DNA of 64,000 nt, taken from positions 1 through 64,000 of the forward strand of contig CBDHHL010000049.1 of the NCBI GenBank assembly GCA_965263355.1, written 5' to 3'. This DNA comes from Leptolyngbyaceae cyanobacterium. Lineage in GTDB: Bacteria; Cyanobacteriota; Cyanobacteriia; Phormidesmidales; Phormidesmidaceae. The first letter of the stretch is position 1; every line of letters begins with the position of its first letter. The notes below the pieces were generated by a model, which saw nothing but the letters and a program-made list of their open reading frames with translations, was not told the DNA's origin and ran no database searches. Shown here in pieces: positions 5,125 to 15,750 of the stretch. Both the position numbers and the translations under genes were made by a program.

Positions 5125-5687
5125 AAGAAGCCCCCCATGGACACTAAGAGGCATGGAGGGCTTTGGGTTAGCTATATAGAGTTAAGTAATACAGGGGTCT
5201 GTCTACTCAGATATAGGTTTCAAGATAGGACGTTTGCAATAACTTGTCTACGGTTCCACTGTACGCTGAGATGCGTCATACTAGCCCTTTTGTGGGATAA
5301 GCTTACTGCTTGCCTACACAACCATCAAGTTTCCTTGGTTTGTGTCTGCGATCACGGTGGAGTGAACCGGTTGGGTGTTGACTAAAGAATTCTGGGATTG
5401 TCTGATGCCGTGGCCTGGTGAGTTGTAGCGTTGGGCGATTAAGCTAGGGAAGCTTTAAAACACAATAACACCCAGAACGATCTACCTGAGGAACTCTTCT
5501 ACATTGGACAAGACTTTCTAGAGTTGTTCTGTGAAGGGCAAACCTTACTAAAAACAATGCTCTCTAGTGCAAGCAAGAAGAAATATCAGTGACCTGTTTG
5601 GATGCTATGTGTAGTCCGTCAAACGATGATATAAAAATATCTATCATTGACCTCCTTTGCTGTGGTTATAAGCTTTTCAGCTCATGT
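5125..5687 (-). ncRNA. Putative large structured ncRNA, copy 1 (~560 nt, family unrecognised)
   Basis: Diverged duplicate at 12296-12864 with indels and no shared ORF; many helices keep pairing through G-U/compensatory changes on the minus strand; two GAAA tetraloop hairpins; upstream -35/-10 and a 3' 12-bp hairpin in both copies. Confidence 0.65.
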
Positions 5688-5691
5688 TTCT

Positions 5692-5730
5692 AGCATATTC
5701 CTTAAGTGGAGCAGTGTCTTTTTTCTGACA
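5692..5730 (-). promoter_or_regulatory. Putative sigma70-type promoter of ncRNA copy 1 with overlapping TGTC-N8-GACA inverted repeat
   Basis: Minus strand AAGACA (5720-5715), 17 nt, TATGCT (5697-5692); the same layout is present in copy 2 while the spacer sequence differs. Confidence 0.5.
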
Positions 5731-5860
5731 TAAAGGTTAATGTTGTTAGTTTTTGTAACTGGTCAGTGAGGTAGGTCTCTAGGATGTTGTGGTTGATGAC
5801 ACTGCAAGCGATAATCTCATCCTTCTAGGATCGCATTGTTCAATAGTGGGTTAAAAGCCG

Positions 5861-6471: not shown

Positions 6472-6806
6472 AATTTGAACCAATAGTTACCCCTATTTTA
6501 GGCTGCCAGAGTCATTAAAGAGCGATAACGTTAAAAATTGTTCCAATAAATCTTCCTACACACCTGTGTGGATGTCTCTTTCTCATACAGTAATCATGAT
6601 TCCGGCTGCCATAAATCTTATGGTTGATTAGTCTCTGGAATATCATCATCAAAGGGTTGTATCCCTGTTTCAGGGTAATTGTCATCACTGGGGGAAAAGA
6701 CCCGCTTAGCAGCTTCTAAGACCCAGATTGTAGATCCTTGGATAGATTGACCAATAGTATTAATCATTCTTTTTACTGTACCCATGACAAAGCTCCTTAA
6801 ATAGTC

Positions 6807-12295: not shown

Positions 12296-12864
12296 TAAGA
12301 AGCCCCCACGGCTGCTAAGGCTCATAGGGGCTTCGGTTTAGATATAAAGGGTTAAGTAATACAGTGTTCTGTCTACTTAGATATAGGGTTCGAAATAGGG
12401 AGTTATGCAATAAGGTGCTTTGTCTGTGAATCCACTGTACGCTGAGGTGTGGCATACACCCCCCTTCGTGGGATAAGCCTATGGCCTGCTTACACAACCA
12501 TCAAGTTTCCCTAGTTTGGGTGTGTGATCACAGCGTCATGAGTTGTTTTGATATTAACTGAAGGCTTCTTGAATTGTCTGATGTCGTAGCCCAGTGAGCC
12601 GTAGCGTTGGGTGACTGGGCTAGTAAACCTTTAAAACACAACAGCACCCAGAACGATCTACCTGAGGAATTTCTCTACATTAGACAAGACTCTCTAGAGT
12701 TGTTCTACGAAGCAATAACCCCGCTAAAAACAAGGCTCTCTAGTGCAAGCAACAAGAAATATCAGTGACCTGATTGGGTGCTGGTATTGAATTGGAAAAC
12801 GATGGAATGGAGATATCTATCGTTGACCTCCTTTTGTTGTGGTTATAAGCTTTTCAGCTCATGT
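12296..12864 (-). ncRNA. Putative large structured ncRNA, copy 2 (~568 nt, family unrecognised)
   Basis: Homologous to 5125-5687; invariant blocks such as AUGAGCUGAAAAGCUUAUAACCAC, UUCCUCAGGUAGAUCGUUCUGGGUG, GGAAACUUGAUGGUUGUGUA, CUCAGCGUACAGUGGA, CUGUAUUACUUAAC; 3' hairpin 12299-12334. Confidence 0.65.
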
Positions 12865-13417: not shown

Positions 13418-13540
13418 GATTCAGAGAATAAAGATCGGTTGGTAACTTTTGTTTCTAGTATTAACGAGTTTTCGCGTTTTTCCATTGACATTCCCCTTCT
13501 CGAAACTTCCCTCTACATATCCCCTAAGGTTTGGAGAAAA
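13418..13540 (+). promoter_or_regulatory. Conserved 5' leader of cyanobacterial rbp genes
   Basis: TTTGTTTCTAGT box, TTCTCGAAA box and TTTGGAGA ribosome-binding site resemble the boxes known upstream of cold-inducible cyanobacterial rbp genes. Confidence 0.5.
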
Positions 13541-13543
13541 TCT

Positions 13544-13816
13544 ATGTCAATCTATGTAGGCAATCTATCCTACGACGTTAGAGATGATGATCTAACGACT
13601 GCATTCACAGAGTATGGAACGGTTAAGAGTGTTCATCTCCCCACTGATCGTGAAACCGGTCGCATGCGCGGTTTCGCTTTTGTGGAAATGAGTACTGAGT
13701 CTGAGGAAGCGGCTGCCATTGAAGCACTCGATGGTGCCGAGTGGATGGGGCGTGATCTAAAGGTCAATAAAGCTAAGCCCCGTGAAAATCGTGGTGGTGG
13801 CCGCAAAAGTTGGTAG
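13544..13816 (+). CDS. rbp: RNA recognition motif (RRM) RNA-binding protein, cyanobacterial Rbp family
   Basis: MSIYVGNLSY (RNP2), RGFAFVEM (RNP1), LDGAEWMGRDLKVNKAKPRE, short Gly-rich tail; start set to ATG 13544 after GGAGA. Confidence 0.95.
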   Translation: MSIYVGNLSYDVRDDDLTTAFTEYGTVKSVHLPTDRETGRMRGFAFVEMSTESEEAAAIEALDGAEWMGRDLKVNKAKPRENRGGGRKSW

Positions 13817-14617: not shown

Positions 14618-14827
14618 ATTTTTTTGCCTTCCTATTTTCCCAAATCATTGCCAAATATAGACTTTAAGTTCCTTGTCATCCTTTAAGATTTTTTTGCCTT
14701 CCTATTTTCCCAAATCATTGCCAAATATAGACTTTAAGTTCCTTGTCATCCTTTAAGATTTTTTTGCCTTCCTATTTTCCCAAATCATTGCCAAATATAG
14801 ACTTTAACTTCCTTGTCATCCTTTAAG
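14618..14827. repeat. Three tandem 70-bp direct repeats containing the probable IS end
   Basis: Units 14618-14687, 14688-14757, 14758-14827, identical except one G>C in the third; each ends CTTGTCATCCTTTAAG. Confidence 0.95.
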
Positions 14828-15692
14828 GACCGCGCCTTCCAAGGAAGACATTGAAGCTATCAAACCGATCCTAGAGGACTGGCTAAAGCAAAGGGGACTG
14901 ACATTCAACCTAGAAAAGACGAAAATTGTTCATATCGAACAGGGCTTCGACTTCCTCGGATTTAATGTCAGACAATTCAAAGGCAAATGCCTGATCACCC
15001 CGGCGAAACAGAAGGTGAACGATCTCCTCCAGCGAATCAGAGACTGGCTCTGAGCCAGTCCCTCGCATAAGCCAGAGGTTGTCATCGAACACCTCAATCC
15101 AATTCTCAGAGGATGGGCCAACTACTACAGGCATGTCAATAGTGCCAGGGTCTTCGCTTCCCTCGACCATTACATCTGGCAGGCCATCTTCAAATGGTGC
15201 AGGAGAAGGCATCCCAGAAAAGGGAAACGATGGGTGGTCAACCAATACTTCAAAACGATTCGGGGAAAGAAATGGTACTTTACTGCTCCGGCCATAAGCC
15301 GAGACGGTCGAGTCATCAACTAGAACTACTCTCTGACTCAATTGGCAACCATCCCTATCGAACGCCATGTCAAAGTGATTGGCAAGGCTTCACCAGATGA
15401 CCCTAAGCTCAAAACATACTGGCAACAGCGTCAAACTCGGCAAGGTAAAATTTACTGGGCCAAAGGCTCGAAACACTACCAAGTGGCAGAGAACCAAAAT
15501 TGGCAATGTCCGGTATGTAAAGAACACCTGTTCAACGGAGAGCAACTGCATACCCATCATGTTCTCAACGTGGCAGATGGAGGGACGGACAAAGTTGAAA
15601 ACCTGCTCCACCTCCACAAAGTTTGTCATCAGTACCTACATATGGGACATAACTACCTGAATCGCAGAAGGCTTGAGCCGGATGGCATGTAA
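14828..15692 (+). pseudogene. Group II intron reverse transcriptase/maturase/HNH, 5'-truncated with two in-frame stops
   Basis: Manual translation: TAPSKEDIE...GLTFNLEKTKIVHIEQGFDFLGFNVR (RT6-7), LNPILRGWANYYR (domain X), CPVC...HTHH...GGTDKVENLLHLHKVCH (HNH); TGA at 15051 and TAG at 15321. Confidence 0.92.
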
Positions 15693-15750
15693 GTGCCACG
15701 TCCGGTTCTGAGGGGAGGGTGATAAGGCGACTTATTCTCCCTTACCCGCC
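15675..15750 (+). ncRNA. Group II intron domains V and VI (3' end of the inner intron)
   Basis: GAGCCGGATGGCAT-GTAA-GTGCCACGTCCGGTTC (domain V with AGC triad and AC bulge) followed by a GGGGAGGG...CTCCCTTACCC stem with bulged A. Confidence 0.9.

Follow-up and report, generated by a model that had tools for sequence, protein, structure and literature searches.

Extended copies of a PmgR1/Ncr0700-family RNA in a cyanobacterium and a candidate ribosome-engaging frame at their 5' ends

The window, that is, the whole 64,000-nt stretch of Leptolyngbyaceae DNA analyzed here, contains two copies of a minus-strand RNA that, as judged by CMs and profile HMMs, very probably belong to the PmgR1/Ncr0700 family by their first ~230 nt (Table 1). 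PmgR1 was reportedly first described by de Porcellinis in 2016. A Shine-Dalgarno-like motif, followed by a stop-free frame that enters the long hairpin of the RNA, recurs across the family. The reading that we favor, with a probability of roughly 0.55, is that these RNAs engage ribosomes and would be selected for the act of engagement, not for the peptide.

Table 1. Positions of the RNA copies, their parts and the adjoining cassette in the window.
Feature	Position	Strand	Basis or remark
Copy 1, extended PmgR1-family RNA	5125..5685	(-)	5' end placed by homology; as in L227, ATG(G)AG follows the -10 box after 6 nt
5' hairpin AUGAGCU-GAAA-AGCUUAU	5668..5685	(-)	99% paired in 59 homologues; counterpart in PmgR1-type RNAs
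Shine-Dalgarno-like AAAGGAGGU	5650..5658	(-)	motif conservation
Stop-free frame, 26 codons from AUA to UAG inside the long hairpin	5564..5644	(-)	predicted; translation inferred
PmgR1-homologous domain, a long irregular hairpin with an asymmetric bubble in the middle	5460..5615	(-)	CM matches
Clade-specific 3' extension	5125..5459	(-)	weak middle helices, UAAGUAG hairpin 5209-5183, terminal stem 5164-5128
Conserved upstream block of copy 1	5692..5830	(-)	-10-like TATGCT at 5697-5692
Divergent small ORF, 72 aa	5861..6079	(+)	member of duplicated cassette
Copy 2 of the RNA	12296..12862	(-)	homology; -10-like TATGCT at 12874-12869
Copy 2 PmgR1-homologous hairpin domain	12636..12791	(-)	CM matches
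Copy 2 frame of 26 codons, AUA (12820) to UAG (12740), with its Shine-Dalgarno motif (12835-12826)	12740..12835	(-)	
Small ORF copy 2, 73 aa	13039..13260	(+)	followed by Rbp (RRM) gene at 13439-13816

Sequence comparison within the window confirmed that the non-coding minus-strand stretch 5125-5687, described in an initial annotation, is repeated at 12296-12864, with 78–83% ungapped identity between the copies in blocks D3 and D14. The repeat is larger than had been described, extending past the RNA by ~170 nt upstream and by the divergent 72-aa ORF. The 5' end, previously placed at about 5687, shifts slightly, to 5685 in copy 1 and 12862 in copy 2, on the basis of homology. The −35/−10 pair claimed upstream of the 5' hairpin was not recovered: promoter calling at the window copies returned no sigma-70 consensus pair, and only the −10-like TATGCT is conserved. 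The upstream block 5692..5830 is also kept in RNA copies that lack the small ORF. Contigs from two runs of one study contain the copy-1 sequence, so that this copy is no assembly artefact. The window resembles a cyanobacterial plasmid, with a ParA gene and, by inspection, integrase- and Rep-like ORFs; a blastn search of plasmids and phages with the cassette found nothing. For the 72-aa ORF, 56 homologues were identified (3 representatives), and 16 of its 36 loci carry the RNA. It is a component of the cassette, yet it is not needed for the RNA. It has no match in Pfam, NCBIfam or Atlas, and one helix is predicted in a low-confidence model (pLDDT 67). The core of this ORF is matched by 15 stretches of a 1035-aa protein (P0057), which is either a repeat protein or an artefact.

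Several other observations concern the window itself. In the upstream region, a motif AACATTAACGTTTRT..AGAGA (5700-5760, minus strand) is conserved in close copies, and TAAACTTT is conserved ~35–45 nt before the −10 box in distant copies; both are possible regulator sites. A 55-aa ORF at 6618-6785 (minus strand) matches in the Atlas (0.90) a cyanobacterial cluster auto-named 'putative isochorismate synthase'; we take it to be AtpTheta/Norf1-like, a dark-induced ATP synthase inhibitor. Norf1 mRNA is co-regulated with Ncr0700 according to the accessible text of PMC4195498. Positions 14910-15750 hold a group II intron remnant, with an HNH fragment (15342-15692) and a domain V-VI match (15673-15750), and three 70-nt tandem repeats lie at 14618-14827. 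A 37-nt inverted match to a group II intron ORF was rejected as being, by estimate, at chance level.

Sequence analysis indicates that each copy is, as originally proposed, a folded RNA gene on the minus strand, and that this gene stands alone. Single-sequence minus-strand folds of the two copies are modestly better than those of shuffled sequences, with z-scores of −2.06 (4 of 100 shuffles as good) and −3.31 (1 of 100). All six helices quoted in the initial annotation are present in the sequence; the main helix of the long hairpin, CAGCAYCCAAAC/GUUCUGGGUGCUG (5609-5596/5478-5464), was missing from that list. We examined the pairings in a close set of 61 distinct full-length copies, metagenome loci included, of which 59, with a mean identity of 75%, remained after a 97% filter. 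Among these 59 homologues, the 5' hairpin (99% paired, GU 77 versus AC 3), the UAAGUAG hairpin (95% paired) and the terminal stem (96% paired, 7 compensatory branch changes) held up, whereas the AAYGAU/AUCGUU helix was weaker (83% paired, AC 64 versus GU 21). The earlier caveat on the strand of the 5411-5446 helix was justified, this helix being ambiguous (GU 20, AC 31).

An all-pairs G-test in the 59 close copies, dominated by phylogeny, returned no pair below E 0.05. In an alignment of 64 close and distant sequences that had been fitted to the model, 32 of the 37 pairs of the hairpin domain showed two-sided change and 89.8% of the cells were paired. None of 500 shuffles reached this level, and slid controls paired at 37–48%. 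Double changes of the compensatory kind, counted on a tree of the close set, numbered 13 in the 5' part, against a null of 3.3 (maximum 10). The 3' part had 18, against 7.6 (maximum 17); this signal comes chiefly from the terminal stem and a single small hairpin, and the middle helices are weak. The label 'highly structured' fits the first ~230 nt and the two 3' hairpins, but not the weakly supported middle of the extension. G-U pairs exceeded A-C combinations in the close set (347:145 and 454:187), which favors the minus strand. Codon periodicity over the element was insignificant (17 windows, all p>0.2), and all six frames contained about 2–6 stops per sequence per 141 columns. A decayed protein-coding gene or antisense ORF was rejected, given the missing codon signal, the lack of long open frames and the absence of a tblastn link to the 350-aa neighbour. 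The element is neither a tRNA nor a tmRNA, ARAGORN having found nothing.

The distribution of the element was assessed from both parts of the cassette. Searches with the small ORF yielded 36 loci, which belong to marine Leptolyngbyaceae (Leptothoe, Adonisia, and Leptolyngbya); most of those without the RNA sit after a chromosomal 350-aa gene. BLAST with the RNA gave matches in all 5 chosen genomes (22, 16, 9, 5, and 4), in 24 of 172 family genomes and in 3 of 401 class genomes. In a metagenome scan 36 of 42 loci were true, and scans of viral contigs gave 0 matches and 4 chance matches, the latter without HMM support. A CM of the central hairpin (R1), searched against 150 family genomes, uncovered a second tier of homologues in 61 of them, and the hairpin domain reached up to 19 matches per genome. 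The homologues share common start and end points, have gained or lost whole hairpins, and some of them lack a middle block of ~93 nt, a recurrent deletion. RNA copies are syntenic between two strains; the orthologous copies are 95–96.5% identical, similar to intergenic DNA (84–95%), so that this identity is uninformative on selection. The neighbours vary and include a secreted repeat protein, DUF2811, DUF4278, and Hsp20 and, frequently, CP12, Rbp, and Usp.

Some features of these loci are recorded in their own right. The commonest neighbour of the RNA is a secreted protein of short LEALDAR-type repeats (L096:1973-2536, ~30 ORFs), without a confident family. The conserved ~350-aa protein (L011:4766-5872 and 17 other loci) has no Pfam or NCBIfam match and by eye appears to combine a winged helix with a GNAT fold; its gene is flanked by a LuxR-type regulator on one side and the chromosomal 72-aa ORF copy on the other, with an acetyl-CoA synthetase-like gene adjoining. 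A CRISPR array lies directly 3' of an RNA copy (L070:10300-12700, L074:6240-7330); a linkage was rejected, this being a single orthologous locus in two strains. In alignment A4, columns 370–420 (window ~5390-5340), copies that otherwise differ carry one or the other of two sequence types, in a mixed pattern that suggests recombination between paralogues.

The distant homologues of the hairpin pointed to PmgR1. The published Ncr0700 sequence was taken from the supplement of PMC6596454; a short-motif search located a near match in 1 of 401 genomes, and PmgR1 orthologue loci were collected from 12 of 14 genomes of one genus. Locus L227 agrees by eye letter for letter with the published sequence and continues into the closing helix. 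In each of the 12 loci, the best match of a CM built without PmgR1 orthologues (R2) fell on the PmgR1 domain, with E values from 2e-7 to 0.07. Altogether, R2 found matches in 57 of the 151 Cyanobacteriia genomes searched; some of these matches are intermediates that combine a 5' part of the PmgR1 type with a hairpin of the window type. In the genome-wide search R2 missed one genome (G355). A further CM (R3), derived from 34 class-level matches, one of them a reverse-strand row, recovered the window copies (E 2e-25 and 3e-24) as well as all 12 orthologue loci (E 1e-12 to 1.5e-4). Likewise, an HMM of 33 PmgR1-type intermediates matched the window (E 1e-19 and 3e-18) and 12 of 12 orthologue loci (9e-28 to 2e-17). 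The homology depends on intermediates, because sequence-only models without them fail in both directions: an HMM made directly from the 12 orthologues does not recover the window copies (its best value there, at copy 2, is E 3.6), and Leptolyngbyaceae-only HMMs score 9.5 bits on PmgR1 versus 8.8 in shuffles, a non-significant difference. The intermediates were themselves picked up by a model that goes back to the window family.

The comparison with PmgR1 of Synechocystis sp. PCC 6803 used family features that we derived from the orthologues, in place of the authors' own definition. The window copies share with the orthologues the long 3' hairpin domain (in sequence and structure), closed by ACARCAYCCAAAC/GUUCUGGGUGYUGU and with an inner GGGAG/CUCY helix; a short 5' AUG(G)AG hairpin 6 nt behind the −10 box; a GAGGU motif 42–51 nt before the domain (about 47–49 nt in the comparison with PmgR1 itself); and an open frame entering the hairpin. 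In contrast, the GGCAGAU/AUCUGUC and AAACAGC/GCUGUUU helices, a 5' double helix present in 42 PmgR1-type rows, are absent from the window copies, in which the match to the intermediate HMM starts at position 114. Because they lack this double helix, we file the window copies, at the level of sequence, as a variant of the family other than PmgR1 proper. Further differences are the predicted length (~560 nt versus <300 nt), the candidate start codon (AUA/AUC versus CUG in PmgR1), a stronger motif (AAGGAGGU), and the number of matches per genome (up to 19 versus one). Conservation in close copies runs ~330 nt beyond the closing helix, where PmgR1 ends, to the terminal stem. This 3' extension contains two ACCCYWUAUC-like motifs. 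When the regions downstream of up to 123 distant homologues were searched with an HMM built from the extension, no match was stronger than E 0.023. The sequence comparisons indicate that the ~330-nt extension (only in Leptothoe/Adonisia), the replacement of the PmgR1 5' double helix and the expansion to up to 19 matches per genome are new in this clade. PMC12873609, in its accessible text, reports a PmgR1 CM with 34 matches in its search regions; the spread of the family was thus already known. The literature passages covered describe no long or multicopy PmgR1 variant and no PmgR1 frame.

The motif between the 5' hairpin and the domain is conserved. Of the 61 close copies, 52 carry AAGGAGGT; among the family copies, 51 of 53 have either this sequence or AGGAGGT, and GAGGT occupies this position in PmgR1-type RNAs. 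In nearly all members, a motif ranging from GAGGU to AAGGAGGU lies 42–51 nt before the hairpin; in five orthologues with a 21-nt insertion the distance is 70 nt. As the start we took whichever AUA/AUC or CUG came first from 5 nt behind GAGG onward, a choice made by position and not by openness; in copy 1 an in-frame AUG (5647-5645) precedes the AUA. Of 168 distinct sequences, which are related and hence not independent, 167 had no stop within 15 codons of this frame, compared with 36 and 54 for the other frames. Counted by distinct position-codons, stops occurred at 1 of 499 in the frame versus 58 of 1033 in the other frames (CUG type, 0 of 254; AUA/AUC type, 1 of 245; 13–16 in each other frame). 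For the CUG type, all 46 frames were open, against a column-shuffle null of 31.0 (maximum 40). In small subsets taken alone, openness was non-significant (9 class-level AUC sequences, P 0.54; 12 orthologues, P 0.15). The count excluded sequences without the motif or with a missing 5' part (L190, L199, L212, L215, and L223), six rows of tandem-domain RNAs (L243, L250, and L259, two each), and the no-calls L270 and L279. Most frames end after 18–31 codons, within the 5' strand of the hairpin. The phase of the frame relative to the hairpin varies between lineages, which implies that the peptide is not conserved between them. The CUG and AUC candidate starts also lie in predicted RNA helices, so that their conservation could be explained without translation. 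The motif is in a predicted loop in two subtypes; in the window copies both motif and start are predicted to be paired.

tmRNA and leader-peptide RNAs are familiar examples of structured RNAs in which ribosomes read a short internal frame. The window RNA differs from them in lacking a tRNA-like domain and a fixed downstream gene to regulate, and in having a ribosome-binding motif of its own. In the ribosome-engaging reading, the RNA would have its own −10 promoter and be transcribed from it, probably, like PmgR1, when the cell is in the dark or low in energy, as the neighbours and the accessible texts of PMC4195498, PMC6596454 and PMC5386190 suggest. A 30S subunit would pair with the Shine-Dalgarno motif and initiate, with low efficiency, at a near-cognate codon, which is AUA/AUC in the window RNA and CUG in PmgR1-type RNAs. 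Translation would run for ~20–30 codons, entering the long hairpin by its 5' strand and opening the hairpin's base. Ribosome engagement itself, rather than the peptide, would be the selected trait, and the abundant RNA may hold or sense ribosomes, coupling their activity to hairpin opening, protein binding or RNase E cleavage. The available portions of the literature provide the background: PmgR1 expression peaks in darkness and PmgR1 is the strongest transcript in dark Synechocystis (PMC4195498), it is needed for growth under photomixotrophic conditions and for glycogen control (PMC4195498, PMC6693541), and it is cut by RNase E, its targets and mechanism being stated as unknown in 2021 (PMC8682795). 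A purine-rich ribosome-binding motif is found on only a subset of Synechocystis genes (accessible part of 10.64898/2025.12.20.695498). In gradients PmgR1 occupies fractions 5–12 with a peak at 8–9 and, unlike tmRNA, is not reported in the ribosome pellet in the accessible text of PMC12475003; this position argues against stable 70S binding, not against transient initiation. We give slightly less than even odds to the more specific idea that PmgR1-family RNAs, as the most abundant dark transcripts in many cyanobacteria, park or gauge ribosomes at night and that Leptothoe/Adonisia added more than a dozen copies and a protein-docking 3' domain with repeated single-stranded motifs.

The strongest alternative, which we nevertheless regard as unlikely, is a PmgR1-family RNA that acts without ribosomes, base-pairing with mRNAs or binding a regulatory protein via GGAGG/GAGGU and the hairpin, the frame being a by-product of structure or descent. 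The modelled folds, with the motif looped out in two subtypes and the candidate start codons paired, would suit such an sRNA, as do the Rbp genes adjoining several copies and the mid-gradient position of PmgR1 in the part of PMC12475003 consulted. It is at odds with the scarcity of stops noted above, which includes variable AT-rich linkers and two subtypes with different start codons.

6S RNA is a long hairpin with a central bubble, similar in length to the domain described here. By analogy, the 150–190-nt hairpin with its central asymmetric bubble might mimic an open promoter and bind RNA polymerase holoenzyme in the dark, and the dark abundance of PmgR1 (accessible text of PMC4195498) would fit such a decoy. 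This is still less probable: the window RNA has no match to the 6S model (RF00013) at E up to 10, the genomes G001, G002, and G535 each carry a separate 6S gene, and the Shine-Dalgarno motif and the frame would be left unexplained.

That a 22–31-residue peptide is the effector of a dual-function RNA seems improbable. Within the Leptolyngbyaceae a pattern ID..E....TA(P/S)..(V/I).DIS is kept, one linker deletion (12 nt) is in frame, and the synonymous share is 0.30 versus 0.22 and 0.19, all of which speak for the peptide; however, phase and sequence differ between lineages, 10 family copies are shifted by 1 nt, and the conserved residues fall on paired bases.

The initial annotation had proposed a new class of large RNA. 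Models of OLE, ROOL, GOLLD and HEARO are present in Rfam 15. The Rfam scans gave no match to these four models, none at gathering level in the window, and, around copy 1 at E up to 10, only a chance snoRNA match. The window RNA resembles the large ornate RNAs OLE, ROOL and GOLLD (PMC12286853) in its 500–600 nt length and in having no enzyme gene attached; it differs in consisting of a ~230-nt structured sRNA core plus a loosely folded extension. The extension without a homologue outside the clade and the failure of the direct orthologue HMM would also suit an ornate RNA unrelated to described ones, but the 5' part is homologous to the published PmgR1/Ncr0700 via bridging CMs and HMMs that score both together, and −10 box, 5' hairpin, motif and closing helix follow in the same order, which leaves this proposal with very little probability.

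Least probable of all is a non-autonomous mobile element (IS200/IS605-derived or MITE-like) with the hairpins as DNA ends: the copies are numerous with sharp ends and the terminal stem resembles IS200/IS605 end hairpins, but copies are 62–98% alike, sites are syntenic in two strains, G-U pairs show a strand bias, the 32 commonest neighbour families contain no recurring transposase or nuclease, and neither a linked TnpA/TnpB/IscB nor recent near-identical insertions were found around the copies, as regards an IS200/IS605 element or omega-RNA.

One outcome of the analysis is a model of the covarying domain, with matches in 57 of the 151 Cyanobacteriia genomes; another is an extreme natural variant of the family. 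The Rfam scans made here miss the PmgR1 family, and the finding extends the family even if the frame hypothesis is false. For a mechanistically unexplained RNA family, the conserved motif and frame suggest a candidate mechanism, which, if true, would make the RNA an unusual regulator, abundant and translated for the act rather than for the product. The ribosome-engaging reading makes the testable prediction that initiation occurs at CUG or AUC/AUA behind the conserved motif. Start-site Ribo-seq data for Synechocystis exist (10.64898/2025.12.20.695498), and PmgR1 is unmentioned in the accessible main text of that source.

The arrangement of family members varies as well. Two tandem hairpin domains follow one promoter in L239:1302-1640, L243:1278-1675, L250, and L259, and four whole RNA copies lie ~400 nt apart in L258. 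PmgR1-type RNAs are found directly upstream of a conserved MAIIALKAWY gene in L245, L255, L261, L262, L266, L267, L269, L270, and L275; this proximity in many genomes suggests read-through.
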